From Acidobacteriota bacterium (GTDB lineage: Bacteria; Acidobacteriota; UBA6911; RPQK01; JAJDTT01): 64,000 bases of DNA. Shown here one piece after another: positions 3,032 to 24,750 of the stretch; position 1 is the stretch's first letter, and the number at the start of each line of letters is the position of its first letter. The DNA lies in the NCBI GenBank assembly GCA_965217775.1, contig CBDCJH010000002.1, positions 3,318,686 through 3,382,685 of the forward strand, read 5' to 3'. Below the pieces are notes generated by a model, which did not search any database, was not told the origin of the DNA, and saw nothing but the letters and a program-made list of their open reading frames with translations. The position numbers were made by a program, and so were the translations under genes.

Positions 3032-4483
3032 ATGCACCTGAGAACCAGTGCCATTTTCGCCGCTCTGGCGACGATCATCGCCGAGGGGGTCGCTCCTGCG
3101 GCCGATCCCGTCGACATCGGAACACGGCGAGAGCTGTTTGTGGATCATTTCCTGATCGACAAGGTCGCCGGCGCCCGTCTTCAACTCCACCATCCCCGCC
3201 GGGAAGGTCCAGCCGTGCATTTCGTGGACAAACCCTGGGAGGGCCACCTCAGCGGCTACGTGACCGTGCTCAAGGACGGTCCCCTGTACCGAATGTACTA
3301 TCGGGGCCGTTCCGAATTGGGACGAGGGGACCGAAACGTCGTCGAGGTGACCTGTGTGGCTGAGTCGGAGGACGGCATTCGCTGGACGAAGCCGGCGCTG
3401 GGCTTTTATGAAATCCATGGGACCAGGGAAAACAACGTGGTACTGGCGGGCAAGCCTCCCTACTCGCACAACTTCTCTCCCTGGATCGACACGCGGCCCG
3501 GGGTGCCCGCCAAGGAACGGTACAAGTCCCTTTCCGGCCTGTATCCGGAGGGGTTGGCCCTCTTCGTCTCGGCCGACGGCCTGCGCTGGACGCTGGATAA
3601 GGAGCCAGCCGTCACCTACCCGGGCAAGGCCTTCGACAGCCAGGCGTGTGCCTTCTGGTCAGACAATGAGGGGCAGTACGTCTGTTATTTCCGGACCTTC
3701 AAGAACGGGATGCGCTGGATCTCTCGGACCACCAGCCGGGACTGCCGGAGTTGGACGACACCAGTCGAGATGCACTATGGAGACACCCCACCCGAGCAGT
3801 TCTACACCAATATGACCCAGCCCTATTACCGCGCCCCGCACATCTACATCGCTCTGGCACAGCGCTTTTTCCCCCGCCGCTCGGCGCTGCCGGAAGCGGA
3901 GTCCGCTCGCTTGGTGTCCGACGCGGCACTGAGGGGCTTCAGCAGCGACGTGGCCCTCATGAGCACCCGGGGGGGCAGGGTCTATCATCGAACTTTTCTC
4001 GAATCCTTCATCCGACCCGGACGCACCGCCCGTGACTGGGCAAGCCGCAACAACACCGCCGCCTGGGGCATCGTTCCGGCCGCAGCCGATCCCCGAACTC
4101 TCTACATTTACCGCCAAGCGGACGTGGCTCAGCCCACGAACCACGCGATTCGGTACTCGCTTCGAGTGGATGGCTTTGCCTCGGTGTGGGCTCCTTTTGC
4201 GGGCGGCGAGCTGATCACAAAACCGCTCATCTTTCGGGGAAGCCGACTGGAGATCAATTTCGATACGTCCGCAGCGGGCTCCATCCGTGTCGAGCTCCAG
4301 GATCCATCAGGCCGCCCACTGCCCGGGTTTGTACTCGAAGACTGCGAAGAGATACTCGGAAATGAGATCAGCAGAGTCGTCCGCTGGCGCAACCGAGAGG
4401 ACCTCGGCGCCTTGGCCGGCAAGCCGATCCGCCTCCGATTCGTCATGAAGGACGCCGACCTCTACTCTCTCCGATTCCAGTAG
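3032..4483 (+). CDS. putative glycoside hydrolase-like protein, type A propeller/sandwich family
   Basis: GAGGAG RBS and signal peptide MHLRTSAIFAALATIIAEG. Same conserved blocks as 1066-2541 (RELFVDHFLID, YRMYYRG, CVAESEDGIRWTKP, PYYRAPHIY, LRVDGFAS, GSIRVELQD, RLRFVMKDADLYS). Confidence 0.85.
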   Translation: MHLRTSAIFAALATIIAEGVAPAADPVDIGTRRELFVDHFLIDKVAGARLQLHHPRREGPAVHFVDKPWEGHLSGYVTVLKDGPLYRMYYRGRSELGRGDRNVVEVTCVAESEDGIRWTKPALGFYEIHGTRENNVVLAGKPPYSHNFSPWIDTRPGVPAKERYKSLSGLYPEGLALFVSADGLRWTLDKEPAVTYPGKAFDSQACAFWSDNEGQYVCYFRTFKNGMRWISRTTSRDCRSWTTPVEMHYGDTPPEQFYTNMTQPYYRAPHIYIALAQRFFPRRSALPEAESARLVSDAALRGFSSDVALMSTRGGRVYHRTFLESFIRPGRTARDWASRNNTAAWGIVPAAADPRTLYIYRQADVAQPTNHAIRYSLRVDGFASVWAPFAGGELITKPLIFRGSRLEINFDTSAAGSIRVELQDPSGRPLPGFVLEDCEEILGNEISRVVRWRNREDLGALAGKPIRLRFVMKDADLYSLRFQ

Positions 4484-4758
4484 GACTTGGCACGCACTTA
4501 TCATCGGAGGGTGCGCAACGGCGTTCGAGGGACCGAAGAATCTGGACAGGATTAAGAGCAACGATACCGGGTTCGCCGTGGCCAAGATGGCGGAAATGAC
4601 TCGTCTTGAGAGTATGCTTGGTGCTTGACCCTGGTCCTTGCCTTCCCGTGACCCCCGGCGCAGAGCCCGACGGCGTGCGTCAAGGTGCCGTCTGGAATTC
4701 AGCCACCACTCCGGTGATCGACTTGACACGATCGCCGAGGATCTGCGAGTTCTTGCGC

Positions 4759-6108
4759 GTGCACGCCAGGCACCTGATCCTCCTTGCCACCATGACCGCC
4801 GCGTCGGTCCCTGCCTGTACGGTGGAAACCGATTCCCGGCGGAACCGCCCCAACATCGTCCTGATCATGGCGGACGATCTGGGCTACGAGGCCCTGGGCG
4901 CCTACGGAGGCAGCTCGTACTCGACACCTATGCTGGACCGATTGGCCCGCCAGGGGATTCGCTTTGACCACGCCTACTCACAGCCGCTTTGCACCAACAC
5001 CCGGGTACAGCTGATGACAGGCCGCTACCAGCACCGCTACTGGCAGGCCTTCGGCATCCTGCCGAACCGGGAGCGAACCATTGGCCATCTGATGCAGGCG
5101 GCGGGCTACCGGACGCTGATTGCCGGGAAATGGCAGTTGCACAGCTATGACCCAGTGGACTATCCCGGCGCGGAGGAGAGACGGGGAACGGGAATGCGGG
5201 GGGCCGAATCGGGATTCGACGAGTATCTACTCTGGCACGCCTGGCATGCCGAGGACAAAGGATCACGGTATGCGGATCCCACCTTCGACCTCAACGGGGA
5301 GCTGATCAAGGAGAAAATGGGAGTTTACGGATCCGACATCTTCGTGGACTACATCAACGATTTCGTAGAACGAAACCGCGGCGTTCCGTTCTTTGTCTAC
5401 TACCCGATGGTGCTTACACACGACCCCTTCGTACCCACTCCGGACAGTCCCCGATGGCACGATGAATCCCGGCGTCACCTGCAGGATCCGGCCTATTTCG
5501 CCGACATGGTCGCCTACATGGACAAGCTGGTTGGAAAGATTGTGGCCATCCTCGACCGGCTGGATCTGCGCCAAAAGACTCTCGTCTTGTTCTACGCCGA
5601 CAACGGCACCCACAGGTCGATTTCATCGCGGCTCGGCAGCCGGATGATCCAGGGTGGAAAGGGAAAGACGACCGATGCCGGTACCCGAGTGCCGATGATC
5701 ATCAGCTGGCCCGGAACCGTGCCGGCCGGCGTGGTGTCAGAGGATCTCATCGACTCGGTCGATATCTACCCGACGCTCGCAGAGCTGGCGGGCACCCGGC
5801 TCCCAGACCAACCCCTGATCGACGGCATCAGTTTTGCGGATCGGCTATTGGGCCGGGACGGCGATCCCCGCAACTGGATCTTCGTAAACTTCGAGCCGAG
5901 ACCGGGATGGGACAAGGACAAGTACTCGGAACTCACCTTCGTCCGCGACCATAAATACAAGCTGTACGATAACGGAGAGCTCTATGACGTCGAATCCGAT
6001 GTGCTCGAAGCCAACCCCATTCAGGCGTCCGTGCGCACCAAGATGCAACGGCGGATCACCGAGAAGTTTCAGAGCGTCATGGAGAGACTCCAGGGCCGCA
6101 AGGAATGA
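4759..6108 (+). CDS. S1 sulfatase (lipoprotein), copy 1 of a duplicated pair, non-canonical C-T-N-T-R active-site motif
   Basis: Sulfatase blocks NIVLIMADDLGYE, PLCTNTRVQLMTGRY, GKWQLH, YADNGTH, GKGKTTDAGTRVP, DIYPTLAEL, ELYD. Lipobox ..SVPAC. The start is set at a GTG conserved in the paralog at 11249; the ORF-track start at 4606 would add an implausible leader. Confidence 0.9.
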   Translation: MHARHLILLATMTAASVPACTVETDSRRNRPNIVLIMADDLGYEALGAYGGSSYSTPMLDRLARQGIRFDHAYSQPLCTNTRVQLMTGRYQHRYWQAFGILPNRERTIGHLMQAAGYRTLIAGKWQLHSYDPVDYPGAEERRGTGMRGAESGFDEYLLWHAWHAEDKGSRYADPTFDLNGELIKEKMGVYGSDIFVDYINDFVERNRGVPFFVYYPMVLTHDPFVPTPDSPRWHDESRRHLQDPAYFADMVAYMDKLVGKIVAILDRLDLRQKTLVLFYADNGTHRSISSRLGSRMIQGGKGKTTDAGTRVPMIISWPGTVPAGVVSEDLIDSVDIYPTLAELAGTRLPDQPLIDGISFADRLLGRDGDPRNWIFVNFEPRPGWDKDKYSELTFVRDHKYKLYDNGELYDVESDVLEANPIQASVRTKMQRRITEKFQSVMERLQGRKE

Positions 6109-6375: not shown

Positions 6376-7385
6376 GGCAGGGCGCGATCTTCATCTTCAC
6401 GACCGACAACGGCTCGTCGGCCGGAGACCTCGTGTTCAACGCAGGCATGCGGGGCAGGAAGGGGAGCGAATACGATGGGGGCCATCGGGTGCCGTTCTTC
6501 ATCCACTGGCCGGAAGGTGGCCTCATCGGCGGAAGGGACGTCGACCCCATCACAGCTCACGTCGACGTGCTGCCGACTCTGGCTGACCTATGTGGGATCC
6601 GGGCGCCGAAGGGCGTGAAGCTGGATGGGCGGAGCGTCCGCCCCCTGTTGTTCGGTGAGGCGGCCCCGGAGGATGGCAGTTGGCCCGACCGGATCCTGGT
6701 CACGGACTCGCAGCGGGTCAAGGATCCACTCAAGTGGCGCAAGAGTTCGGTCATGACGAGCCGCTGGCGGCTGGTCAATGGAGAAGAGCTCTACGACATC
6801 AAGTCCGACCCTGGCCAACGGCAGGACGTCGCCCCGTCGCATCCGCAGGTGGTGGCACGCCTGAGGGACTTCTACGAATCCTGGTGGGCCGAGTTGGAGC
6901 CGACCTTTCGGCAGGACGCCCGGATCTATCTGGGACACGAAGCGGACAATCCGACGACTCTGACCAGTCACGACTGGATCGCCACGGACTATACCCCCTG
7001 GAACCATTCCCACATCCGCGATGCCCTGACCGGTGCCGGCCACATCGGTCACTGGAACGTCCACGTGGCCCAAAAGGGCGACTATGAGTTCCGCCTGCGT
7101 CGCTGGCCGGCAGCAGCGGACACGCCGATCACGACCGGCCTCGACCCCGGCGAACCGGTCCCGGGCGAGCCGGCCTTCCGGACCACGCCGGGGAAGGCTC
7201 TGGCGATCGTGAAGGCTACCTTGGAGATCGCTGACCGGGAAGTGGAGAAACCCGTCGCCCCCGGTGCCAACGACGTCGTCTTCAACCTGAATCTGAGCCC
7301 CGGCCCCGCCACGCTGACGGCCCGCTTGATCGCCAGGGAAGGCCAAGCCTACGGGGCATACTATGTGTCGGTGAAGAGACGGTGA
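6351..7385 (+). pseudogene. 5'-truncated sulfatase (central and C-terminal part only)
   Basis: It starts inside the conserved block [11 protein letters not shown], followed by [28 protein letters not shown] and ELYDIKSDPGQ, plus a long C-terminal extension. The N-terminal roughly 230 aa carrying the metal ligands and the formylglycine motif are absent. Confidence 0.65.
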
Positions 7386-7481: not shown

Positions 7482-7640
7482 CAGTCCGCGGCAAAAGTAC
7501 CGCGTCGCACCGCCCCCGGGGCTACGCTCGACGACAAGGCGCGACGAGGAAGCAGACTCGACCGGATGTGCCCGGGGAGCAACGCATTCCGCCGGAATGC
7601 AGACCCGGTCGAATGCCGTGACGACGTTGGCCCCGGGCTG
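7482..7640 (+). repeat. MITE-like repeat, family A, copy A1
   Basis: About 159 bp, alignable with 9220-9379, 12669-12826 and (reverse) 24594-24750. Imperfect terminal inverted repeats CAGTCCGCGGCAAAAGT.. / ..CCCCGGGCTG. Flanks are TCAA/TCAT. Confidence 0.75.
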
Positions 7641-7691
7641 TCATCCCGCTTACCCGACGAGTTGGAGCGGACGGCAGACTTTCAGTCGAGA

Positions 7692-9167: not shown

Positions 9168-9219
9168 TGTTACTTCTCCATCATTATCTGGCCATTCCGT
9201 GAGAATTGACTCGGATTAA

Positions 9220-9379
9220 CAGTCCGTGGTGACAGTTCCGCGAGCACCGAGACCGTTCCTGCGCCCGCCGGACAAGGCGCAACGGAGGGAGCATATCGGG
9301 CGTATTTGACCGAATCGCAACGCAGTCCGCGCACGATGCAGGGACGGTCGAATGCCGCGACGACTTTTGCCACGGGCTG
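9220..9379 (+). repeat. MITE-like repeat, family A, copy A2
   Basis: 160 bp. Terminal inverted repeats CAGTCCGTGGTGACAGTTCC / GACTTTTGCCACGGGCTG. Flanked by a perfect 4-bp direct repeat TTAA. Confidence 0.8.
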
Positions 9380-9472
9380 TTAAGGGTGAGTATTGGAAAT
9401 CCGTCATAGAGGTGGCATGGATTTTGGACAACTCAGCAATATTGCTCCAACGCCCGAACCTGGGTCAATCGC

Positions 9473-10935: not shown

Positions 10936-11066
10936 ATGATGCTCCGGACGATTGTCCCTCTGCCGGCGCTCCTCGCCGTTATGCCTGCTGTCCCTGGGCA
11001 GGCAAGCCGATCCGTCTCCGGTTCGTCATGAAGGACGCCGACCTCTACCCTCTCCGGTTGCGGTAG
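10936..11066 (+). pseudogene. chimeric scar: sulfatase signal-peptide fragment joined out of frame to the last 21 codons of a type A propeller gene
   Basis: 10936-10998 encodes MMLRTIVPLPALLAVMPAVPGQ, close to the N-terminus of the sulfatase at 27952 (MMLRTIVPLLALLAVMPAVAQ). 11001-11066 encodes GKPIRLRFVMKDADLYPLRLR*, close to 4418-4483. The two parts are offset by 65 nt, which is not a multiple of 3. Confidence 0.7.
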
Positions 11067-11248
11067 GACCTGGCATCCACTTCCCATCCGAGGGAGCGCA
11101 ACGGCACCCGGGAGACGGGAGCATCCGGACAAAGTCGAGAGAAACGACACCGGGCACGCAATGACCAAGATGGCGGAAATGACTCGTCTCCTGACCCCGT
11201 TCGCTGTTTGACTTGACAGGATCGTCGAGGATCTGCCAGTTCTCCTGC

Positions 11249-12598
11249 GTGCCTACCCGGCTCCTGACCCTCCTCGTCATCATGACCGCCGCGTCGGTCG
11301 TTGCCTGCACGGTGGAGACCGGCTCCCGGCGGGACCGCCCCAACATCGTCCTGATCCTGGCGGACGATCTGGGCTACGAAACCCTGGGCGCCTACGGAGG
11401 GCGCTCCTACTCGACGCCGATGCTGGACCGCCTGGCCCGTCAGGGGATTCGTTTCGACCACGCCTATTCCCAGCCGCTCTGCACGAACACCCGCGTGCAG
11501 TTGATGACGGGCCGCTACCAGCACCGCTACTGGCAGGGCTTCGGAATCCTGCCGAAAGGGGAGAGGACCTTCAGCCATCTCATGCAGGAGGCGGGCTACC
11601 GGACGCTGATCTCCGGGAAATGGCAGCTGCACAGCTATGATCCCGCGGACTATCCCGGTGCGGCGGAGAGACGGGGAACGGGTATGCGGGGCGCCGAGTC
11701 GGGATTTGACGAGTATCTGCTCTGGCACGCCTGGCATACCGAGGACAAGGGATCACGGTATGCGGATCCCACCTATGACCTCAATGGAAAGCTGGTTCGG
11801 GCGCAGACGGGGGCTTACGGGCCGGATCTCTTCGTGGACTACATCAACGATTTCGCAGAGCGGAACCGCGACCTTCCGTTCTTTGTCTACTACCCCATGG
11901 CGCTCCCGCACGGCCCCTTCGTACCCACTCCGGACAGCCCCCAATGGCAGCAGGAATCCCGGCGCCACGAATCGGACCCGGCCTACTTTGCCGACATGGT
12001 CGCCTACATGGACAAGCTGGTCGGAAGGATCGTGGCCCACCTGGACCGGCTGGGTCTGCGCCGACAGACTCTGGTCCTGTTCTATGCCGACAACGGCACC
12101 CACAGGATGATTTCTTCGCAGCTTGGAAACCGGACGATCCAGGGCGGAAAGGGAAAGACGACCGATGCCGGAACTCGAGTGCCGATGATCGCCAGTTGGC
12201 CCGGCACGGTTCCGGCCGGCGTGGTCTCACAGGATCTCATCGACTCGGTCGATATCTACCCGACGCTGGCGGAGCTGGCGGGCATCCGGCTCCCAGGCCA
12301 GTCCCTGGTCGACGGCGTCAGTTTTGCGGATCGGCTATGGGGACGGGACGGGGATCGCCGCGACTGGATCTTCATGCACTTCGAACCGAGGCCGGGATGG
12401 GACAAGGACAAGTACGCGCAACTCACGTTCGTCCGCGATCGGAAATACAAGCTGTACGGCAACGGAGAGCTCTACGACATCGAATCCGACGGCCTGGAAG
12501 CCAGCCCCATCCAGGTGTCCCAACGCACCGAGGAGCAACGGCGGATCTCCGAGAGGTTTCGGACCATCCTGGAAAGGCTTGAGGGCCGGAAGAAATGA
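11249..12598 (+). CDS. S1 sulfatase (lipoprotein), copy 2 of duplicated pair, C-T-N-T-R motif
   Basis: Collinear with 4759-6108 and nearly identical over long stretches (NIVLILADDLGYE, PLCTNTRVQLMTGRYQHRYWQ, GKGKTTDAGTRVPMI). Lipobox ..SVVAC. Confidence 0.9.
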   Translation: MPTRLLTLLVIMTAASVVACTVETGSRRDRPNIVLILADDLGYETLGAYGGRSYSTPMLDRLARQGIRFDHAYSQPLCTNTRVQLMTGRYQHRYWQGFGILPKGERTFSHLMQEAGYRTLISGKWQLHSYDPADYPGAAERRGTGMRGAESGFDEYLLWHAWHTEDKGSRYADPTYDLNGKLVRAQTGAYGPDLFVDYINDFAERNRDLPFFVYYPMALPHGPFVPTPDSPQWQQESRRHESDPAYFADMVAYMDKLVGRIVAHLDRLGLRRQTLVLFYADNGTHRMISSQLGNRTIQGGKGKTTDAGTRVPMIASWPGTVPAGVVSQDLIDSVDIYPTLAELAGIRLPGQSLVDGVSFADRLWGRDGDRRDWIFMHFEPRPGWDKDKYAQLTFVRDRKYKLYGNGELYDIESDGLEASPIQVSQRTEEQRRISERFRTILERLEGRKK

Positions 12599-12668
12599 CC
12601 GCGGGACGCCGATCTGGCTGCGCCTGCGGCCTCGATCCATCGGCATTACCCAGCTTCTCCAATACTAT

Positions 12669-12826
12669 CAGTCCGTGGTGAAAGTCCCGCGAGCACCGAG
12701 ACCGTTCCTGCGCCCGCCGGACAAGGCGCGATTCGGGTGCATACCGGGAGTATGTGCCCGAATCGCAACGCAGTCCGCCGGGATGCAGGGACGGTCGAAT
12801 GCCGTGGCGACTTTTGCCACGGGCTG
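12669..12826 (+). repeat. MITE-like repeat, family A, copy A3
   Basis: 158 bp. Terminal inverted repeats CAGTCCGTGGTGAAAGTC / GACTTTTGCCACGGGCTG. Flanked by the 4-bp direct repeat CTAT. Confidence 0.8.
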
Positions 12827-13386
12827 CTATGGGCCTCTCCGCCACCCCGGCGGCCCAGGCTGGCCCTCGCGGGTTCCCGGTTGACGCGTGCCACGCCACC
12901 GGCGGGGCTTCCCGTGTTGCTACCCTCTCCCTCTTGTCCACATGCCACCGCCACTACCCCGGCGGAACCGGCCGGTGCTTACGTCGCTCGCTTCCCGGCC
13001 GCTGCCAGCCTTCGTGCGTATCTCAGGCGGGTCGGCTTCCGCATTGCCCGTTTCGAGGCCTGCGCAGCGTTCGCTCAAGCTACGGCCTGCGGACTCGCTG
13101 AGTCGCCCGAGGCGACCCTTTGGCATCGGAGTGCTTCAGTCCAATTCGTTACCTCCTTGAACCGCTCCGACTGCTACCGGCTGGAGCGACAGTTGCCGGG
13201 CGAGTTTCGCACCCGCTAGGAGAAAGCGCCTTTCCATGGCGTACTGAGAAATGCGGGCCAGGGCCGCTGCCCGTCTTCGCCACCCAGGCTTGACTCCCCG
13301 CAGGGTTCCGATGAAGACTTGTCTTCAAACGCGAGCGGTCCTCTTAACCCGGTCCCTGGCTGGCGCGGCGCTGCAGATAAGGCTCG

Positions 13387-14103: not shown

Positions 14104-16413
14104 ATGTTCAGACACCTGCAACGAGTGTTGGCGGCGGCGGCCGTGGTGCTGCCTGCGCTAGCCTCGACGCCTCTGGACCGTCCGCCCCGGCAGGATGAGC
14201 AGACGTTCCTGCTGCTGCATCTGGACGAGCCGGACGAAGGAATAGCGGTCGCCGACAAGGTGCTGGTGGATCCCGTCTACGTGCGGATGGAGGCCCGGCA
14301 CCAGCAGGGACGTTTCGGTGGAGCTCTGAAGTTCGTAGGTCGGCCAGGTCTCCGCCAGTGTCTGTTGGTTTCTCTGCCCCAGCCGCAATATCTGACCCGT
14401 CACACCCGCAAGCGTCCACCCATCCGCTTCGCGGATGTCGAAGTGCCGGTGGTCCTCATGGACAACCAGAGGGGCTACACCATCGAGTTCTGGATGCTTC
14501 CCCAGGCCCGGCAGGCGCAGGTCATGCTGGCGGGGGTCAACTCGGCGACCTGGGTCCCCACATCCTCCTGGAAGGTGGAAATCACCGGGCAAGGGCGGTT
14601 GCGTTTCGCCAGCGGAGCCGGCCTCCACCGTTTTTACATGGAGAGCGAGAAGCCAGTCGCCATCGGCCGCTGGACCCACGTGGCCGTGGTCTGCGACAGG
14701 GGCAACGTGGGCATTTATCTCAACGGCCGCCGGTCCGGTCCGTTTCGGCGGATGGAACTGGCAGAGCGCCAGGGGGTGGGCGAGCCCGGAAGCGACGGCT
14801 CCATCCTGTGTGTCGGCGGTCCCGGGCCGGACGCCCAAACCGGCTTCTTCGACGGCCTGATCGATGAGGTCCGCCTTTCCACGGCGCCGCGCCGTTTCGA
14901 GCCCGATCCCGCCATCCTGATCGGCAACGGCAAGGAGCTGTTCCTGGATGATTTTCTGCTGGCTCGAATGGAGGGGATCGAACGGGTCGTGAACCAACCT
15001 GAGCGCTACCCGGGCAACCCGCTGCTGACGGCCAAGGGCGACTGGGAAGCCGGCTCCATGCAACAGTTCGGAACCCTCTATGATCCCCGGCTGCAATTGT
15101 TCCGAACCTGGTACCGGGCCAACAACAGCGAGGACAACCAGATGAGCATGTGCTACGCCGTGAGCCGCGACGGCCTTCGGTGGGAGCAGCCGGTGCTGGG
15201 TCTGGCGGAATATCGAGGCTCGACGCGGAACAACATCGTCACGCCGAAGCGGTCCTTCTTCGTGTTCCTGGACCCTCTGGCCCGGCCAGGCGAGGGGAAC
15301 ATCTGCGCCAGCGCGAAGATGCTTTACGGGTCCGACCGGGGGACCTTCAAGCAGATCCTCCTGCGCTCCCCCGACGGACTCCACTGGCCCTGGGGGCCGG
15401 TGCGGAACATGAGCGGCTACCAGGGTTGGCCCTACAGCCGCATCCGCCGCCAGGAAGCCGTCATGGCCACCGACCGGCCGCTCATGCAGAATCCAGTCTA
15501 CTTCGCCCGCCTCGACAAGATGACGGTGATCGCCAACGAGGGCGAGGGGTTGAAGGACCGGGTCTATGCCCGCATCGGGTGGGACCTGACCCACTGGCAG
15601 GACCCGGTCTTGACGGACCTGAAGCGGAGCGAAAAAAACAATCTGGGCTGGTACGGCATCCGGACCAAGGACGAGTCCAGCGTCCTGGTGGGATTCACCG
15701 ACGCCTACCACAATGAGCAGAATCCGGATCCCCGCTGGAGGAGCCTGGGGCCCGAGGCCTACCAGGACAAGCCCAGCGCCTGGCTCGACATTCAGCTCAT
15801 CAGTTCGCGCGACGGCTACCGTTGGCAGCACGTGGCGGACCAGGATGTGTTCCTGCCGGTGGGTCCGGAGGGCGCCTGGGACGAGGGGATGGTGCTGTAC
15901 GCACAGGCCGTCGAGCCTCCGGGATCGGACCGGATCTACCTCTACTACCAGGGCTCGCCCGTCCGCCACGACATGACCGATGCCGGATGGCTCCAGTGGC
16001 ACGCCCGTTCCCAACGACCCTCAAACAACATGGGCGTCGCGTTTCTGAGGAAGGAGGGCTACGTCAGCCTGGAGGTGAAGCCGGATGCGGCCGAAGGCGT
16101 GGTCGAAACCCGGCCGCTCCGATACCGGGGACGGCACCTCTTCGTCAATGCCGACGCCTCGAAGGGCGCGGTCCAGGTGGAACTCTGCGACGAGACGGGG
16201 AATCCCCTGTCCGGGTTCGGACGGAAGCGGGCCCTGCCGTTGACGACGGACGTGACGAACCATCTCATTCGCTGGGGCCAAGAGAGCGACGTCTCGCGGT
16301 TTGCGGGCCAGGCTGTGGTCCTTCGTTTCCACCTGACACCGGGCGCAAAATTGTACGCGTATCGCTTTGGTGGGCCCGACCCCCACCTGGATCTCGAGCG
16401 CCGGGAGCCGTAG
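14104..16413 (+). CDS. LamG/ConA-like lectin domain fused to type B propeller/sandwich glycoside hydrolase-like module
   Basis: The N-terminal roughly 270 aa (RFGGALKF.., FTIEFWM, WTHVAVVCD, IYLNG, FDGLIDEVRLS) has the LamG-type jelly-roll pattern. The remainder aligns with 38086-39717 and 46621-48165 (ELFLDDFLL, GNPLL, YDP..QLFRTWY, AVSRDGLRWEQP, NNIV, SRDGYRW, VVLRFHL..AKLYAYRF). It is a paralog of 35681-38011. Confidence 0.85.
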   Translation: MFRHLQRVLAAAAVVLPALASTPLDRPPRQDEQTFLLLHLDEPDEGIAVADKVLVDPVYVRMEARHQQGRFGGALKFVGRPGLRQCLLVSLPQPQYLTRHTRKRPPIRFADVEVPVVLMDNQRGYTIEFWMLPQARQAQVMLAGVNSATWVPTSSWKVEITGQGRLRFASGAGLHRFYMESEKPVAIGRWTHVAVVCDRGNVGIYLNGRRSGPFRRMELAERQGVGEPGSDGSILCVGGPGPDAQTGFFDGLIDEVRLSTAPRRFEPDPAILIGNGKELFLDDFLLARMEGIERVVNQPERYPGNPLLTAKGDWEAGSMQQFGTLYDPRLQLFRTWYRANNSEDNQMSMCYAVSRDGLRWEQPVLGLAEYRGSTRNNIVTPKRSFFVFLDPLARPGEGNICASAKMLYGSDRGTFKQILLRSPDGLHWPWGPVRNMSGYQGWPYSRIRRQEAVMATDRPLMQNPVYFARLDKMTVIANEGEGLKDRVYARIGWDLTHWQDPVLTDLKRSEKNNLGWYGIRTKDESSVLVGFTDAYHNEQNPDPRWRSLGPEAYQDKPSAWLDIQLISSRDGYRWQHVADQDVFLPVGPEGAWDEGMVLYAQAVEPPGSDRIYLYYQGSPVRHDMTDAGWLQWHARSQRPSNNMGVAFLRKEGYVSLEVKPDAAEGVVETRPLRYRGRHLFVNADASKGAVQVELCDETGNPLSGFGRKRALPLTTDVTNHLIRWGQESDVSRFAGQAVVLRFHLTPGAKLYAYRFGGPDPHLDLERREP

Positions 16414-16414
16414 C

Positions 16415-17908
16415 ATGTTCAGGGTCCCTGGTAACCGCACCAGTGGACGGCTGTATTCCGCGGCTCTACGCCGGGCACGAACGTTTCCTCTTCTCCTGCT
16501 CTCGGCTTTCCTGGCCGGATTCTCCTCCGGATGCACCCGGCAGCTCGAGCGGCCGAACATCGTTTTGATCCTGGCCGATGACCTGGGCTGGAACCAGTTG
16601 GGCTGCTACGGAAGCAGTTTCTACGAGACTCCCAACCTCGACGGCATGGCTCGAGAGGGGATGCGTCTCACCGACGCCTACGCGGCCAGCCCCGTCTGCT
16701 CCCCGACTCGAGCCAGCATCATGACGGGCAAGTACCCGGCGCGACTCCACGTCACCAAGTTCATCTCGCCGCAGGACTACGTCCCCAACCCGAACGCCAA
16801 GCTGTTGGATCCCGACTGGACACCCTATCTGCGCTTGGAGGAGGAGACGATCGCCGAAGCCTTGAAGAAGCTGGGGTACGTGACGGCCGGCTTCGGAAAA
16901 TGGCACCTCAGCCGCGTCAAGACGCCTCCCGAGAGCCTGCCCTTCAATCCGGACAAGCAAGGTTTCGACCAGCACTTCGTAACCTACAAGCCGGTCCCAT
17001 CCATGGCCAGGAAGTGGCAGACGCCGGAGGACGATGCCCACAACGTGGGAATCATCACCGAGAAGTCCCTGGAGTTCATGGAGAAGAACCGTGAGAGGCC
17101 CTTCTTCCTCTTCGTTTCGCACAACAGCATTCACACCCCCCTGGTGGAGAAGAAGGCTCTGATCTCCAAGTACCGGAGGAAGCCGGACGTCGACTCTCCC
17201 ACCAACCACCCGGTTATCGGAGCCATGATCGAGACCCTGGATCGCAGTGTCGGCCGGCTGCTGGCCAAAATCGACGAGATGAAGCTGACCGAGAGGACCC
17301 TCGTGCTTTTCTATTCCGACAACGGAGGATTGGATTGGACCGCGACCGAGGGGCAGATCGCCGCCAACGATCCGTTGCGGGCCGGAAAGGCCGACCTCTA
17401 CGAAGGGGGAATCCGGGTGCCCTTGATCGTCCGCTGGCCGGGCCGAATCCCCCCCGGCCGCGTCTCCGGGGAACCTGTCAACAGCGTGGATCTCTTTCCC
17501 ACGCTGCTGGAGGCAGCCGGAGGCACCGAGACGGGCAAGGACACCGACGGCGTGAGCCTGCTGCCGCTTCTCACGGGGCCCGTGGTCCCCGGCCGGGACG
17601 CGCTCTTCTGGCACTACCCCCACTACCACAAGTTCGGAGCCTTCCCTTCGAGCGCCATCCGGAAGGGTGAGTACAAACTGATCGAGTGGCACGAGGCCGG
17701 GATCTACGGATCGGACAATCGGTACGAACTCTACGACTTGGTGGACGATCTGGGGGAGTCTCGAAATCTGGCCTCCGTCCTGCCGGAGAAGACCCGGGAA
17801 CTGGCAGCCGACCTGGAGAACTGGCGGCGCTCGGTGGGAGCCCAGATGCCGAAGCGCAACCCCGACTATCGGCCGGAAGGCCAGCCGCGGGCGCGTGACC
17901 GGGAGTAG
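16415..17908 (+). CDS. S1 sulfatase (lipoprotein), canonical CSPTR motif
   Basis: Lipobox FSSGC. Blocks NIVLILADDLGWN, SPVCSPTRASIMTGKYP, GKWHL, SDNGG, GKADLYEGGIRVP, DLFPTLLE. The ATG lies 2 nt after the upstream stop. It is a close paralog of 53555-55000. Confidence 0.92.
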   Translation: MFRVPGNRTSGRLYSAALRRARTFPLLLLSAFLAGFSSGCTRQLERPNIVLILADDLGWNQLGCYGSSFYETPNLDGMAREGMRLTDAYAASPVCSPTRASIMTGKYPARLHVTKFISPQDYVPNPNAKLLDPDWTPYLRLEEETIAEALKKLGYVTAGFGKWHLSRVKTPPESLPFNPDKQGFDQHFVTYKPVPSMARKWQTPEDDAHNVGIITEKSLEFMEKNRERPFFLFVSHNSIHTPLVEKKALISKYRRKPDVDSPTNHPVIGAMIETLDRSVGRLLAKIDEMKLTERTLVLFYSDNGGLDWTATEGQIAANDPLRAGKADLYEGGIRVPLIVRWPGRIPPGRVSGEPVNSVDLFPTLLEAAGGTETGKDTDGVSLLPLLTGPVVPGRDALFWHYPHYHKFGAFPSSAIRKGEYKLIEWHEAGIYGSDNRYELYDLVDDLGESRNLASVLPEKTRELAADLENWRRSVGAQMPKRNPDYRPEGQPRARDRE

Positions 17909-19741
17909 ATCGATGCCGGGAACCGGAAGAGACTCGGGGCGGCTCCGATTTCAGCCATGGGCGGGACCGCGAGGAAAGGTGGCTATCCATCTCGCCCTGG
18001 TTCTCGGCGTGGCCTTTTCCGCCGGCTGGCCGGACATCGTGGTGGCCAACTATGGCGAGGAGAGCGGGCATCGCCAAGGTTATCGCCTGCACCGGGAGTC
18101 GTATGTCTACTGGGGGGCTCCCGACGGGTACTCAGCCGAGCGGCGCACGTCCATCCCCACCTTGAGCGCCATCAGCTGTGCCGTCGGGGACTTCGACGGC
18201 GACGGATGGGCAGATCTCGCGTTTGCCAACAACAACCTCGAGCACCAGAGCCTGAGTCTCCATTGGGGCTCGAGCGCGGGATTCGACGGCGCCAGGCAGC
18301 TGGATCTGGAGGCGGGCAACCCGCGGCTGGTCCGAGCCGCCGATCTCGATCTCGACGGGACAGACGAACTGGTCGTGTTCTCGGGGAAGACGAGATCGGC
18401 CTTCTTCGATGCCGATCGAACCGAGAGATCCAACCTGGATTCGGGATCCGCGGGCCTTCTGCTCTTCCAAATCTCTGAAAGGCCCAGCTTGGGCCGGCCC
18501 CGGCGCCTGCCCGCCGAGGAGGTCCGGGAGGTGATCGCCCGGGACCTCAACGGAGACGGTCACGTCGACCTGACTCTGGCCGGCCAAGTCGCCGATCAAG
18601 GGTCGGAAGTCACGGGTTCGGCACTCTACTGGGGATCGGGCGCCGGATTCGATCCCGGGCGGCGGACCGTTCTGCCGACTCTTTCCCCGGGATCGGTGGC
18701 GTCTGCGGATCTCAACCGGGACGGCCATATCGACCTGGTCTTCGCCAACGCGGAAACCTCCAAGACCCACGACCCTCCCTCCCACATCTACTGGGGGTCG
18801 GAGAAGGGCTTCCACCCGGCCCGGCGCTCCCACCTGCAGGGGTTCGGAGCCGTCGGCGTGACGGCCGCGGACCTGAACCGGGACGGCCATCCCGAGATCG
18901 TGCTCATGAACCGGCTCAGCGGCAGGAAAGCGGGCGAAATTCCTTCGCTCATCTTCTGGGGGAACTCGGCCCATCACTACTCGGAGGCGAAAGCGGTAGA
19001 ATCGGTCCATATTTCCCCGATTTGTCGGCGAATAGAACAACTATGCACCTCCAAATCGAGAAAATCTGGCCTCGATTCCCCACTTTCTCGCTACGATCAT
19101 TTCTACCGCGCAGACTCCTGGTTTCCAGCAACTACAAGGCGGAGCAGACCCGGAGCCTTCCCGTCTTCATCTATTGGGGCAGCGCCGGGGCCGGCTACGA
19201 AAACCGCCGCAGGACCGAACTTCCGGCGGAATCATCCTGCGGCATCCAGTTGCTGGACCTGAATCAGGACCGGTACCCGGAGATCGTCGTCAAAAACCAC
19301 ATCAAGGATGGCGACCACAACTTCGGCGCCTACCTCTACTGGGGAGGCGAGGAGGGCTATTCCGTACAGCGCCGGACCCACCTTCCAACGGCGGGAACGC
19401 ATTTCGCTCATGGGATCGCTCCCGGCAACATCTATGACCGGGGTCCTGAGTACGACTATCTGTCGCCGGTGCTCCCGATCCCGGACAAACGGTGCTTCCT
19501 GGTTCCTGAATGGAGGGGTGAGACACCCCACAACACCTCGATCCGCATGCAGCTTCGCTTCGGATCTGACCAGTCACCATTGACTGGCGCCGCCTGGAGG
19601 GAGACCGGCCGCGGGGAGTGCCACTCCCTGAATGAGGATTCCGCGGCCCTGCAATACCGTGCCGTCCTGGTATCGCCGGATGGGGGCAACAGTCCCGTCC
19701 TGGAGGAAGTCATCCTGCGTTTCGTGGACTCATGTCCCTGA
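17895..19741 (+). pseudogene. FG-GAP/VCBS-repeat protein gene interrupted by a MITE-like element (two overlapping ORFs in different frames)
   Basis: Seven repeats of the type DLN-DG-x-D..(I/V)YWG-x-x-x-GF/Y-x-x-x-RR. The repeat series breaks at ..IFWGNSAHHYSEAKA (about 18986). It resumes in another frame at ..SSNYKAEQTRSLPVFIYWGSAGAGY (about 19119), with roughly one third of a repeat missing. Confidence 0.7.
18987..19118 (+). mobile_element. MITE-like repeat, family B, copy B1 (left end truncated), inserted in the FG-GAP gene
   Basis: 132 bp, nearly identical to 21424-21555 with 2 mismatches seen. More AT-rich than its surroundings. Internal inverted repeat GCGGTAGAA..TTCTACCGC. Confidence 0.8.
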
Positions 19742-19894
19742 CAATCCCGGGCTCACAGCCACGTTCAGGAGCGATCCCAAGGCCAGCCGGTACTGGGATG
19801 GCCGCCAAGTGTCGCTGGGCAGGATGACGAGGGGCTCCTTGCCTTGTCGCGCTGTTGCTTCCGCCGTCATATAGTATTGGCCAGGAACCTGCAG

Positions 19895-21361
19895 ATGTTT
19901 TCTTCCTTCCTCCTTCGAACCTTCCGGATCGCAGCCGGTTTCCCGCTGCTGGCGTCGTGTCATCCCACGCCTGAACCAGCGGATGCGTCGGAATCCTTGG
20001 CGATCGGCACGAGACTGGAACTGCTCCTGGACGACTATCTGATCGAGTCCCGCAGGAACCTGGAATTCGATGTCCATCAGCCTCGGCCTGCAGAGAAAGT
20101 GATGACCTTCGAAGCTCTCTGGGAGGGCCCCTTCTGCGATTACTTCACCGTCTTCGAGGACAAGGGTGTCTTCCGAATGTACTACGCGACTCACCCACAA
20201 GCAGGCTTCGCCTCGGACACGGATCAGTTCACCTGCTATGCGGAGAGCACGGACGGAATCCACTGGACGAAACCATGGCTCGGAATCGTCCAGTTCCAGG
20301 GATCCGGGAACAACAACATCATCAATCGAGGCTGGACCGCTCACAATTTCAGCCCCTTCATCGACACCAAACCGGGGACGCCTGCCGACCAACGATACAA
20401 AGCGGTCGGAGGTCATGCCCGGATCGGCGGGCTGAAGGTCTTCGCCTCGCGCGATGGCCTTCACTGGCGCCTTTTGGCCGAAGAGGCCCGGATCACCAAG
20501 GGCAGCTATCCGGAACCCGTGGGTTTCGATTCGCAGAACATCGCCTTCTGGGATCCGCGCCGAGAATCCTACTTCGCCTATTTCCGAGTCAAACACAACG
20601 GCAAGCGGGCCATCGGCATCAGCTCCTCGAAAGACTTTCTCCACTGGTCGGATCCCGAACTGGTACGGGTGGAAGCTCCTTCTCAGGAACACATCTATAC
20701 GAATGCGACGCTCCCCTATTTCCGAGCGCCTCACCTCTACCTGGCCTTTCCCATGCGTTATGCTCCCGGCCACCCCTCTTCGATCCCAGACACCAAGAGC
20801 GCCTGCGACGCTGTCTTGATGTCCAGCCGGGACGGCAGAAACTTCAAGCAGCATTCCAGCGAGCCTTTTCTCTGGCCCGGTCCCGAGAAGGAGAACTGGA
20901 CCAAGCACAGCAACATGCCGGCCTGGGGGTTGCTGGCCACATCGGAAACCGAGTTGTCGGTGTACTACACCCAGCATTTCTATCTCCCCACCGCCCACTT
21001 GAGGCGAGGAACAATGGGTATCGACCGCTTCGTCTCCCTGCACGCTCCCCTCTCAGGAGGGGAGTGGACCAGCAAACCGCTGCAATTCTCCGGCGATGAC
21101 CTGGTCCTGAATTACCGGACGAGCGCCGTCGGCAGCATCCGCGTGTCGATCCTGGACCGCGACGGGCAACCGCTGGACGGCTTCCAACTGGAGCAGTGCC
21201 CCGAGATTTACGGCGACGAGATCGCGCGCACTGTATCCTGGGAAGACGGCGGGGCGAAGCTGGCGAAACTGAAGGGTCAAATCGTCCGTCTGCGTTTCGT
21301 GATGGAGGATGCGGATCTCTTCTCGATCCAGTTCCGGGAGGCTCAGGCGGCCGGCAGCTGA
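19895..21361 (+). CDS. putative glycoside hydrolase-like protein, type A propeller/sandwich family (lipoprotein)
   Basis: Lipobox LLASC. Blocks LELLLDDYLIE, FRMYY, CYAESTDGIHWTKP, NNII, SRDGLHW, AFWD, PYFRAPHLY, SRDGRNF, GSIRVSILD, RLRFVMEDADLFS. Confidence 0.85.
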   Translation: MFSSFLLRTFRIAAGFPLLASCHPTPEPADASESLAIGTRLELLLDDYLIESRRNLEFDVHQPRPAEKVMTFEALWEGPFCDYFTVFEDKGVFRMYYATHPQAGFASDTDQFTCYAESTDGIHWTKPWLGIVQFQGSGNNNIINRGWTAHNFSPFIDTKPGTPADQRYKAVGGHARIGGLKVFASRDGLHWRLLAEEARITKGSYPEPVGFDSQNIAFWDPRRESYFAYFRVKHNGKRAIGISSSKDFLHWSDPELVRVEAPSQEHIYTNATLPYFRAPHLYLAFPMRYAPGHPSSIPDTKSACDAVLMSSRDGRNFKQHSSEPFLWPGPEKENWTKHSNMPAWGLLATSETELSVYYTQHFYLPTAHLRRGTMGIDRFVSLHAPLSGGEWTSKPLQFSGDDLVLNYRTSAVGSIRVSILDRDGQPLDGFQLEQCPEIYGDEIARTVSWEDGGAKLAKLKGQIVRLRFVMEDADLFSIQFREAQAAGS

Positions 21362-21394
21362 CGAGGTCGAACGGGATAGTCGATTCTCGGCCCA

Positions 21395-21555
21395 GGAGCC
21401 TGCGCGGCAGAAATTGATCTACTGCGAAAGCGGTAGAATCGGTCCATATTCCCCCGATTTCTCGGCGAATAGAACAACTATGCACCTCCAAATCGAGAAA
21501 ATCTGGCCTCGATTCCCCACTTTCTCGCTACGATCATTTCTACCGCGCAGACTCC
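21395..21555 (+). repeat. MITE-like repeat, family B, copy B2 (full length)
   Basis: 161 bp with about 38-bp imperfect terminal inverted repeats: GGAGCCTGCGCGGCAGAAATTGATCTACTGCGAAAGCGG versus the reverse complement of the right end GGAGTCTGCGCGGTAGAAATGATCGTAGCGAGAAAGTGG. The termini resemble family A termini. Confidence 0.75.
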
Positions 21556-21583
21556 CCGGTCCCTTCAACCTGGAGGACGGACG

Positions 21584-23107
21584 ATGAGAATGAGACTTTC
21601 GGCTCTCACGGCGGCCTTCCTGGCGCTCCCTCTGGGTGCGGCGCCCCCTGCAGAGCAGGCCGAATCCGGGAAGCCTATCGACATCGGCTCCCGACTGGAA
21701 CTTTTCGTCGATCACCACCTGATCGATCGGCTGGACGGAGCGCGCCTGATGATGGGACACCCCCGGCCGGCGGGAACAGTCCTGAAGGCGGATCGGCCGT
21801 GGGAGGGTCCCCACAACTGGGGTTTCCAGGTGATCCACGACGGCGGCGTCTATCGCATGTTCTACCGGGGATGGTCCGAAGACGGATCCGTCGTCCTCTG
21901 CTACGCCGAGAGCCGCGACGGTGTCCGCTGGGAGAAACCCAGTCTGGGGCTGCTGGAGGTGAATGGCACCCGGGAGAACAACGCGGTGGCCGTGGTCGAC
22001 GAGACCGGTCGCCGCCCGGTCCACTACCTTTTCCCTTTCATCGACGCCCGTCCCGGCGTGCCGGCCGCCGAGCGTGTGAAGGGAATCCGCGCCATCCTCC
22101 AGTCCAAGGAACCATTCCTCATGCACGTCTACCTGTACGGTTCCAAAGACTGGTTCCAGTGGCGGCGGCTACGCGAGGAACCCATCATCGCAACCGGAAT
22201 CCGCAACGCCTTCGATGCCTCCAACTACGTCTTCTGGTCGCAGACGGAGGGACTCTACGTCTGCTATTTCCGCTACATGGTAAAGCGCCCAAACAGCTCT
22301 TCTCCGTCAGGACTCCGATCCATTCAGCGTGCCACCTCCCGGGATCTGATTCACTGGTCCGAGCCGAAGGGGATGACCTACAGCGATACCGGGACCGTCG
22401 TACCCTCCGACCACTTGTACACCAACAACACGGAGCCCTATTTTCGAGCCCCCCATCTCTACGTGGCTCTGGCTGCCCGTTTCATGAAGGGCCGACGCGT
22501 CGTCACCGACGCCCAACTGGACCGGATGCGAGTGGCTTCACAAGGAGGCCACGCCTACTACGAGGACTGCTCCGACGGGGTGCTTCTGACGACCCGGCCC
22601 GGGACCACCCGGATCGACCGGACCTTCCTGGAGGCCCTGGTGCGGCCGGGGCGGGGACCGGAGAACTGGGTCTCCCGGACCAACTATCCCCTGAGGGGAG
22701 TGGTGCAGACCGGACCCGCGGAGATGTCGTTCTTCGTGAGCCGGCACTACGCCCAACCTTCCTGGCACATCGAGCGCATGACCCTGCGCCTGGATGGATT
22801 CAGCTCCGTTCGGGCTCCCTACCAGGGAGGCGAGATGCTCACCAGACCCCTGATCTTCTCGGGAAACCGGCTGGTGATCAACTACGCCACCAGCGCGGCC
22901 GGAAGTCTTCGAGTGGAGGTCCAGGACATGGGAGGCCAGCCTTTCCCCGGATTCTCTCTCTCCGATTGCCGGGAGATCATCGGGGACGAGATCGAACGTC
23001 TGGTCACGTGGGAAGGTCGCCAGGATCTGAGTCGTCTCTCAGGGAAGCCGGTTCGGCTGCGCTTCGTCATGAAGGATGCGGATCTCTACTCCATGAGATT
23101 CCGATAG
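21584..23107 (+). CDS. putative glycoside hydrolase-like protein, type A propeller/sandwich family
   Basis: Signal peptide. Blocks LELFVDHHLID, YRMFYRG, CYAESRDGVRWEKP, NNAV, PYFRAPHLY, LRLDGFSS, GSLRVEVQD, RLRFVMKDADLYS. Confidence 0.85.
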   Translation: MRMRLSALTAAFLALPLGAAPPAEQAESGKPIDIGSRLELFVDHHLIDRLDGARLMMGHPRPAGTVLKADRPWEGPHNWGFQVIHDGGVYRMFYRGWSEDGSVVLCYAESRDGVRWEKPSLGLLEVNGTRENNAVAVVDETGRRPVHYLFPFIDARPGVPAAERVKGIRAILQSKEPFLMHVYLYGSKDWFQWRRLREEPIIATGIRNAFDASNYVFWSQTEGLYVCYFRYMVKRPNSSSPSGLRSIQRATSRDLIHWSEPKGMTYSDTGTVVPSDHLYTNNTEPYFRAPHLYVALAARFMKGRRVVTDAQLDRMRVASQGGHAYYEDCSDGVLLTTRPGTTRIDRTFLEALVRPGRGPENWVSRTNYPLRGVVQTGPAEMSFFVSRHYAQPSWHIERMTLRLDGFSSVRAPYQGGEMLTRPLIFSGNRLVINYATSAAGSLRVEVQDMGGQPFPGFSLSDCREIIGDEIERLVTWEGRQDLSRLSGKPVRLRFVMKDADLYSMRFR

Positions 23108-24593: not shown

Positions 24594-24750
24594 AGTCTGT
24601 GGCGAAAGTCGTCACGCCATTCCACTGGGTCTGCATTCCGGCAGACCGGGTTGCTTCTCGATCACATAGGGTCGAATAGGTTCCCTCGTCGCGCCTTGTC
24701 CGGCGGACGCAGCCCCCGTCTCGGCGCTACGCAGGATTTCTACCACGGGA
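24594..24750 (-). repeat. MITE-like repeat, family A, copy A4 (inverted orientation)
   Basis: The reverse complement aligns with A1-A3 (..CCGCCGGACAAGGCGCGACGAGG.., ..GCCGGAATGCAGACCC..). It sits 50 bp upstream of the GH109-like start and directly abuts motif copy (c). Confidence 0.7.

Follow-up and report, generated by a model that had tools for sequence, protein, structure and literature searches.

Does the short repeat that splits an FG-GAP/VCBS repeat gene at this locus merely disrupt the gene, or does it also provide a start from which the 3′ half is expressed? In the window (the whole 64,000-nt stretch of Acidobacteriota DNA that was analysed), the repeat is present as two copies, B1 and B2 (Table 1), and the initial annotation treated it as a 132-bp MITE-like element that interrupts the gene, carries an ATG in frame with the 3′ half, and might act as a portable entry point for translation or transcription. 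The window was compared with the corresponding alleles of close strains (L001, L002–L005, and L107), with the orthologous proteins P0001, P0003 (the L107 protein), P0019, and P0024, and with a set of 95 non-redundant full-length copies of the element (~96% mean identity). Overall, the comparisons make it very probable that an ordinary MITE insertion disrupted the FG-GAP gene and was followed by two microhomology deletions, with both the ATG inside B1 and the ATGA overlap beside B2 non-functional.

Table 1. Features of the two element copies and the interrupted gene (coordinates of the window).
Feature	Position	Strand	Details
5′ remnant of a different gene (start and signal-peptide-like N-terminus), fused to the FG-GAP remnant	17913–18022	+	40 codons to 18032, inside the microhomology
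Deletion junction 1	18023–18033	+	11-nt microhomology CGGCTGGCCGG, common to the upstream gene and FG-GAP codon ~217
FG-GAP/VCBS repeat remnant (5′ remnant)	18034–18986	+	~Residues 217–534 of the L107 protein (P0003)
Deletion junction 2	18987–18996	+	10-nt microhomology: gene GCGAACGCGG, element nt 30–39 GCGAAAGCGG
MITE copy B1, left-truncated	18987–19118	+	Element nt 30–161; right TIR 19095–19118; blastn and TIR match
ATG inside B1	19043–19045	+	Element nt 86–88; in frame with the FG-GAP 3′ remnant
Right 2-bp target duplication copy of B1 (TG)	19119–19120	+	
FG-GAP 3′ remnant	19121–19741	+	Last 206 codons and stop; frame differs from the 5′ remnant
Left flank dinucleotide of B2 (CA)	21393–21394	+	Non-canonical duplication copy; alignment with the empty L001 allele, flank table
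MITE copy B2, complete	21395–21555	+	161 bp; left TIR 21395–21419, right TIR 21532–21555
Right flank dinucleotide of B2 (CC)	21556–21557	+	

The two copies are identical at 130/132 positions (18987–19118 vs 21424–21555), a match seen in 0 shuffles, and the repeat has a GC content of 47–53% compared to ~60–70% in its surroundings. The element is a genuine MITE, though the 132 bp first recognized are only a part of it, the full element being 161 bp long and B1 truncated on its left side. The terminal inverted repeats (TIRs) are 24–25 bp (GGAGYCTGCGCSGYAGAAAT(T)GATC); GGAGCCTGCGCGGCAGAAAT agrees with GGAGTCTGCGCGGTAGAAAT, the reverse complement, at 0 mismatches to a degenerate 20-mer, and shuffles yielded 0 matches. 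The 161-bp sequence is an imperfect palindrome throughout that folds as a single full-length hairpin, and it lacks the coding capacity for a transposase (longest internal frames, 43–44 codons). Matches occurred on at least 100 stretches, most of them in one 6.2-Mb Acidobacteriota metagenome-assembled genome (MAG), and the copy number in related Acidobacteriota MAGs is at least 100. Of the 127 blast matches listed, before duplicate removal, 105 were full-length and 101 covered element nt 1–161 elsewhere; deletion derivatives of ~98 bp and 41 bp were present. Searches of a plasmid collection (distant mode) and of viral contigs returned no match. Family B is, in short, a non-autonomous DNA transposon of 161 bp; annotation of these Acidobacteriota genomes should mask it or label it as a mobile element.

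Occupied and empty alleles were found for both sites. At site B1 the element is present in the window, L001 (complete element, 12017–12177), and L107 (complete element, 6813–6973) and absent from L002–L005; site B2 is occupied in the window, L002–L005, and L107 and empty in L001. The empty B1 allele of L002 is GACCTGGTT, where GACC-TG-GTT stands against GACC-TA-element-TG-GTT in the occupied alleles of L001 and L107. Comparison of occupied and empty alleles revealed a target duplication, with imperfect duplicates at both window sites. The TIRs, the TA duplication, the copy number, and the paired alleles bear out the interruption of the FG-GAP/VCBS gene by a MITE, and the TIRs, duplication, and empty sites together demonstrate that the element is mobile. 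Its abundance, recent activity, and variation among close strains make the family usable as a strain marker.

Insertion occurs at TA, with cTAg as the preferred context, and the TA is duplicated. Among the 95 copies, 46 are flanked by TA on both sides, and the preference extends over three positions to the left (−3 C, 90/95; −2 T, 80/95; −1 A, 85/95) and to the right (+1 T, 78/95; +2 A, 71/95; +3 G, 78/95), with AA/TT targets occasionally seen. An IS5-like 4-bp CTAG duplication was rejected, since the termini remain G...C in non-CTAG contexts (one exception), which indicates a duplication of 2 bp rather than 4 bp. An origin from IS605-related palindromic elements (PATEs), prompted by TnpB genes adjoining the locus in L001 and L002, was likewise rejected on the TIRs and TA duplication. 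PATEs are characterised by subterminal hairpins in place of TIRs, by the lack of a target duplication, and by ends akin to those of a TnpA/TnpB element; blastn found no similarity between the element and the adjoining TnpB elements in L001 and L002. The target and its duplication are the signature expected of an IS630/Tc1-mariner-type transposase, which would act in trans. IS630 and ISY100 also use and duplicate a TA target, IS630 preferring CTAG and ISY100 inserting on occasion at AA/TT (PMC2170065), though both are autonomous elements of 1.1–1.2 kb with a DDE transposase, which the window element does not encode. Two observations count against the assignment. The ~0.8 Mb of loci sampled for a partner contained no element that encodes a transposase and has matching TIRs: the TIR match retrieved only other small elements and the 41-bp mini-derivative, and the sole IS630-family IS, recovered by clustering multi-copy ORFs (DDE_3, 1.3e-24), has unrelated TIRs (GTACC..TAACA..TAA). 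Further, comparison with the empty alleles of the two sites shows an xA left duplicate in place of xG or xC (TA vs TG at B1, CA vs CC at B2), an anomaly that a simple 2-bp duplication does not explain. Few such elements have been described in this phylum, for which family B would exemplify the activity of IS630-type MITEs.

The damage to the FG-GAP gene is more extensive than the insertion itself. The family has a length of ~950 aa (1656 homologues at E ≤ 1e-5; orthologue P0001, 963 aa), and the 5′ remnant, aligned to P0001, P0003, and P0019, carries FG-GAP_3 (PF13517, 1.9e-29) and FG-GAP (PF01839, 1.8e-18) domains; the C-terminal ends of P0024 and P0001 run colinear with the 3′ remnant. The change of reading frame across the repeat (frame 0 before it, frame 2 after it) was correctly noted at first, but the estimate that part of one repeat is missing is refuted by P0001, P0003/L107, and L001: ~236 codons, roughly five repeats, are gone between NSAHHYSE and LVSSNYK. 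The first ~216 codons of the gene are also missing, and the remnants lie in different frames; the complete architecture, with the native N-terminus, every repeat, and the C-terminal domain in a single frame, is absent. At junction 2, L107, L001, and L002 read ...TCGGAGGCGAACGCGGCGCTC where the window reads ...TCGGAGGCGAAAGCGGTAGAA, and L001 retains both copies of the microhomology, 737 bp apart (11309 and 12046). Junction 1 was located by a three-way comparison of the window, L002, and L107 and L001. Window positions 17308–18033 are 99.7% identical to L002 2169–2893, and the first 40 residues of the fusion are the N-terminus of a 524-aa gene (L002 2773–4347).

These alleles suggest a sequence of events that begins with the element entering a ~970-aa FG-GAP/VCBS gene at codon Leu~770. 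With 163 nt added, the frame is shifted by +1, and the upstream frame meets a stop after 13 codons (GACAAEIDLLRKR*). The gene was inactivated, a state that strain L107 preserves. In the lineage of the window, a 737-bp microhomology-mediated deletion then took ~236 codons, the TA, and the first 29 nt of the element, and B1 lacks nt 1–29 because this deletion removed the left end. A second microhomology-mediated deletion, of ~3.8 kb, took the first ~216 codons and two upstream genes, joining a foreign signal-peptide start to the FG-GAP remnant. The order, insertion and then deletions, is what we infer from the alleles. Exact-protein look-ups found neither of the two window ORFs on record. For annotation, the ORFs at 17895–19262 and 19022–19741 are the remnants of one inactivated gene with a foreign 5′ end, not two genes.

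The reading that competes best with disruption and decay, though quite improbable, is that the element was exapted: it would provide a start and perhaps transcription, the 206-codon C-terminal part would still be made as a 232-aa product, and the ORF in B2 would be coupled to the next gene. The initial annotation was correct about the frames on which this reading rests. ATG 19043 does share its frame with the 3′ half (ORF 19022–19741). This ORF remains intact in each of the three alleles that carry the MITE (window, L001, and L107); in the window it is 239 aa long when counted from the TTG at 19022, upstream of the ATG, and in L001 and L107 gene callers begin a 232-aa ORF at the element ATG. 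At B2, the ORF 21309–21587 (with ATG 21480) does end in a TGA that overlaps the ATG at 21584. Other bacterial MITEs are known to have ORFs fused in frame with those of the host (PMC2229807), and the 3′ remnant has a dN/dS of 0.28 (window vs L001), close to the 0.29–0.31 of neighbouring genes.

Signals for expression, however, do not accompany the frame. The 20 nt before ATG 19043 (TCTCGGCGAATAGAACAACT) contain no Shine-Dalgarno-like motif, and a consensus scan of both strands of 18800–21800 found no sigma-70-like site. Across the 95 copies, orientation is unbiased relative to the downstream gene start (33 same vs 36 opposite) and to the upstream gene end (39 vs 42). The ATG frame is open up to the right end of the element in 78/95 copies; past that end it stays open (33/95 with at least 55 codons) at a frequency not above that of control frames (24–36/95). 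An insertion in + orientation has a 1 in 3 chance of placing the ATG in frame. Between the window and L001, identity is ~99% over the MITE and its flank, whereas the 3′ remnant shows 6.5% divergence and that of the window clusters with the L002 allele, which is free of the MITE; the low dN/dS therefore predates the insertion or is unlinked to it. With the strains being recombination mosaics, deep dN/dS is uninformative on selection after the insertion; the 5′ remnant has values of 0.34–0.37 (protein-guided), and the tip-specific substitutions in the 3′ remnant of MITE-bearing alleles are 0 synonymous and 5 nonsynonymous.

At B2, which sits in the spacer of two co-directional genes 28 nt upstream of ATG 21584, the GGAGGA Shine-Dalgarno that belongs to the downstream gene lies outside the element, and the start of this gene is identical in the MITE-free L001, where the spacer is 59 nt. 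B2 is an insertion that has stayed intact between the genes of a two-gene unit and is probably harmless there. Lacking a Shine-Dalgarno, a promoter-like site, an orientation bias, and a frame enrichment, the idea of a portable entry point is unsupported; the in-frame ATG and the ATGA overlap appear to be functionless by-products of where the copies landed, and expression from the element start is predicted to be lacking. It is very doubtful that the element ATG drives translation of the orphaned FG-GAP C-terminal domain and that the family seeds new starts or N-terminal extensions genome-wide; if true, a MITE insertion would have made a new, small stand-alone protein out of a single large secreted repeat protein.

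Disruption followed by deletion also has to be weighed against a mis-join of the assembly at 18023–18033 and 18987–18996 in a repeat-rich gene whose true locus would be L107-like, which is very unlikely. The FG-GAP repeats are mutually similar, related assemblies show differing repeat-to-repeat collapses (P0019, P0024), and the window-specific deletion junctions are on no independent contig, with two metagenome scans for the B1 junctions returning no match. Against this, the microhomology at the junctions is just 10–11 nt and lies between unrelated sequences (gene/MITE and gene/gene), outside long repeats, which makes an assembler collapse unlikely; the assembly is chromosome-scale (6.29 Mb), and the right B1 junction recurs in two other assemblies. 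Least tenable, and exceedingly unlikely, is a primary role of the repeat as a structured RNA or regulatory hairpin (small-RNA gene, mRNA stabiliser, or terminator) and not as a transposon: the consensus is one long hairpin, far stabler on the minus strand (−88.8 vs −57.7 kcal/mol; 7 vs 1 G-U pairs), and B1 has a z-score of −5.5, but window 17000–23000 has no Rfam match at E ≤ 1, orientation is unbiased relative to neighbouring gene transcription, a consensus scan found no U-tract or terminator-like site, and the TIRs, TA duplication, and empty sites are those of a mobile element.

Disruption by a family B MITE raises no new mechanistic question, the kind of element being already known and only the member new. 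Some Correia elements of Neisseria are reported to be functional promoter- or start-donating MITEs. The window element shares with the Correia/NEMIS elements the size (100–160 bp), TIRs of ~24–26 bp, TA duplication, full-length hairpin transcript, size variants by internal deletion, and occasional element-host ORF fusions (PMC2229807), though it has no sequence similarity to them, and the promoter-like sequences, IHF site, and RNase III processing documented for Correia elements are not detectable in it. The likeness to RUP, an IS630-Spn1-associated MITE of Streptococcus pneumoniae, lies in a small, non-autonomous element with ~100 copies, TIRs, and insertion at TA, often beside or into IS elements and in mostly intergenic locations (PMC2229807). 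RUP differs in being 107 bp long with TIRs that match a resident IS630, compared to 161 bp in an Acidobacteriota host in which the TIRs of the one IS630-family IS sampled bear no relation to those of the element. The Rickettsia palindromic elements (RPE) and other intragenic MITEs are similar as palindromic mobile elements that lie within a coding gene and have a frame of their own that runs on into host codons; RPE insert in frame and the host protein stays functional, whereas the window insertion causes a frameshift, with decay of the gene thereafter.

The repeat noted in the initial annotation is near-identical (18987-19118 compared to 21424-21555, 130/132 positions alike), with a GC content of 47-53% compared to 60-70% in the surroundings. 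Element limits were set from close relatives of the locus, identified by protein search and exact-protein look-ups. The copy of this element, family B, within the FG-GAP/VCBS gene of the related loci L001 and L107 is 161 bp, and the window copy in that gene (B1) lacks the first 29 nt compared to L001, L107 and the second window copy (B2). The element terminates in inverted repeats (GGAGCCTGCGCGGCAGAAATTGATC and GATCATTTCTACCGCGCAGACTCC), and its consensus forms one long hairpin over its entire length that, because of G-U pairs, is more stable on the minus strand than on the plus strand (-88.8 vs. -57.7 kcal/mol); the element had no match in Rfam. Both insertion sites are polymorphic between close strains, with occupied and empty alleles at each (Table), and family B is therefore a recently mobile MITE.

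A scan for an element-internal 22-mer, using one genome per species, matched at least 100 stretches. Of the matches listed, most came from OZ253580.1, a 6.2-Mb Acidobacteriota MAG, and others from further Acidobacteriota/Terriglobia MAGs. These listed matches held 95 non-redundant full-length copies (mean identity, ~96%). TA occurred at both flanks of 46 of the 95 listed copies, with C at position -3 in 90 and G at +3 in 78, the prevalence of which points to a c-TA-g target with duplication of the TA; a 4-bp duplication is argued against by the G...C termini retained at non-CTAG sites. Similar target behaviour has been described for IS630 and ISY100 (PMC2170065), and an IS630-type transposase is putatively assigned to family B by target signature alone. 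No transposase-encoding partner with the element's TIRs was found in the sampled loci. A 1.22-kb IS630-family IS (Pfam DDE_3, 1.3e-24; CTAG flanks), multi-copy in an Acidobacteriota genome that also holds family B, has TIRs (GTACC..TAACA..TAA) unrelated to those of the element. Family B copies adjoin an end of this IS at two loci (L012 and L028).

Mismatched, patterned duplications were common among the listed copies (TA/TG, 11; CA/TA, 9), both patterns fitting CTAGG to CCAGG, the outcome expected of very-short-patch repair; at both window sites, however, the left duplicate is xA compared to xG or xC in the empty allele. About 17 of the 95 listed copies (L006-L105) had landed exactly in an adjacent gene's TAG stop codon, which is regenerated because the element starts with G (TA-GGAG). 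Derivatives of ~98 bp (nt 1-70 joined to 117-161) and of 41 bp, the latter scarcely more than two TIRs with the TA flanks kept, were also present. In behaviour family B resembles RUP, Correia/NEMIS and other bacterial MITEs, which it joins as an additional member; MITE-host ORF fusion itself is not new, having been documented for such elements (PMC2229807).

Features of the window and of related or element-bearing loci
Feature	Location	Remark
B2, complete copy	window 21395-21555	from relatives' alleles
Site B1, occupied	window, L001, L107
Site B1, empty	L002-L005
Site B2, occupied	window, L002-L005, L107
Site B2, empty	L001
Mismatched duplication, left/right flanks	window 21393-21394, 21556-21557; L001 12015-12016, 12178-12179
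~98-bp derivatives	L025 4339-4436; L037 366-463; L042; L074; L085; L095
41-bp derivative	L017 7223-7263
IS630-family IS	L020 553-1777; L028 1324-2548; L012 2-895
IS3-family copies around P0001 gene	L106 3551-4710, 8980-10139	inverted
P0019	L001 10001-12058
P0024	L002 6001-7866
Family A, window	9219-9386; 12668-12833; 7533-7647; 24594-24728	third partial; fourth inverted, diverged
Family A, L001	1796-1959; 8183-8352; 17549-17729
TnpB elements	L002 914-2168; L001 5284-7725; L107 1095-2270	first vs. window 17308-17315
Paralogous pairs, window	16512-17097 vs. 53607-54189; 4410-5011 vs. 10993-11501; 14173-15710 vs. 35750-37308

The initial annotation had proposed the element as a portable translation or transcription entry point. 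The reading frames it described were as stated, with the ATG at 19043 in frame with the downstream FG-GAP part and, in B2, the TGA of the ATG frame overlapping the ATG at 21584. A match between ATG frame and downstream host frame has a 1/3 chance, since insertion adds 163 nt and the TA must fill codon positions 2-3. No Shine-Dalgarno-like motif lies in the 20 nt upstream of the ATG (TCTCGGCGAATAGAACAACT), and neither strand of 18800-21800 yielded a sigma-70-like site. Based on gene positions from a crude gene caller at all loci, ~76 of the 95 listed copies were intergenic and 'genic' copies were mostly at ORF edges. Orientation among the listed copies was even relative to both the downstream gene start (33 same, 36 opposite) and the upstream gene end (39 vs. 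42). The ATG frame remained open for at least 55 codons past the right end in 33/95 listed copies, on par with three control frames (24-36/95). The gene downstream of B2 has retained a GGAGGA of its own and shares its ATG with the MITE-free allele (spacer 59 nt there). Collectively, the motif searches, orientations and control frames suggest that the element is unlikely to provide an entry point.

The upstream (17895-19262) and downstream (19022-19741) FG-GAP ORFs differ in frame, as claimed. The orthologue P0001 (L106, 963 aa; usual family length ~950 aa by protein search) is uninterrupted, and the gene in L107 is split by the element. L107 is a simple insertion allele, consisting of the complete gene, the 161-bp element and TA after ...LNRDGSLDL, in which the upstream frame halts 13 codons inside the element (GACAAEIDLLRKR, then stop) and the element ATG starts a called 232-aa ORF. 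The P0001 gene, the sole uninterrupted 963-aa orthologue found, is flanked by a pair of IS3-family copies (HTH_Tnp_1 + rve) in inverted orientation, a layout resembling a composite transposon.

Relative to the L107 state, the window has a 737-bp deletion that takes out ~236 codons together with the left TA and nt 1-29 of the element, causing the frame change between the two FG-GAP parts. The 10-nt GCGAA[C/A]GCGG occurs in L001 at 11309 (gene) and 12046 (element), and the window keeps a single copy (18987-18996). A second deletion, of ~3.8 kb, has its junction at 18023-18033, where an 11-nt microhomology (CGGCTGGCCGG) marks the switch to FG-GAP codon ~217; these window-specific junctions are without independent assembly support. 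Window 17308-18033 shares 99.7% identity with L002 2169-2893, where the sulfatase gene ends and an unrelated gene of 524 aa contributes its first 40 codons, so that the apparent N-terminus of the 17895-19262 ORF comes from another gene. The earlier description of part of one repeat as missing was thus a large underestimate. In other strains, the same gene has independent, differing in-frame repeat-to-repeat deletions (P0019, 685-aa ORF; P0024, 621-aa ORF) that could be true recombination between repeats or assembly collapse.

Omega values from deep divergence (3' remnant, ~0.28; 5' remnant, 0.34-0.37; neighbouring genes, 0.24-0.36) are silent on the post-insertion period because the strains are mosaics. 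The 3' remnant of the window differs at 17 sites from the MITE-free L002 vs. 64 from the MITE-bearing L001, and over the element itself the window and L001 share ~99% identity. Tip-specific changes on alleles that bear the MITE were all nonsynonymous (5/5), a weak hint of relaxed constraint.

A second MITE-like family in the window, family A (~166 bp), has Tc1-like termini (CAGTCCGTGGTGAAAGTC...GACTTTTGCCACGGGCTG) and TA or T(T)A flanks, and its ends are directly adjoined by several family B copies elsewhere (e.g., L023, L041 and L086). The sulfatase gene beside the locus is split in related strains by IS605-type TnpB elements (OrfB_IS605 / Cas12f1-like_TNB) that are absent in the window. The window itself is a cluster of glycan-degradation type, rich in sulfatases, in which several gene pairs are paralogous (69-86% DNA identity).
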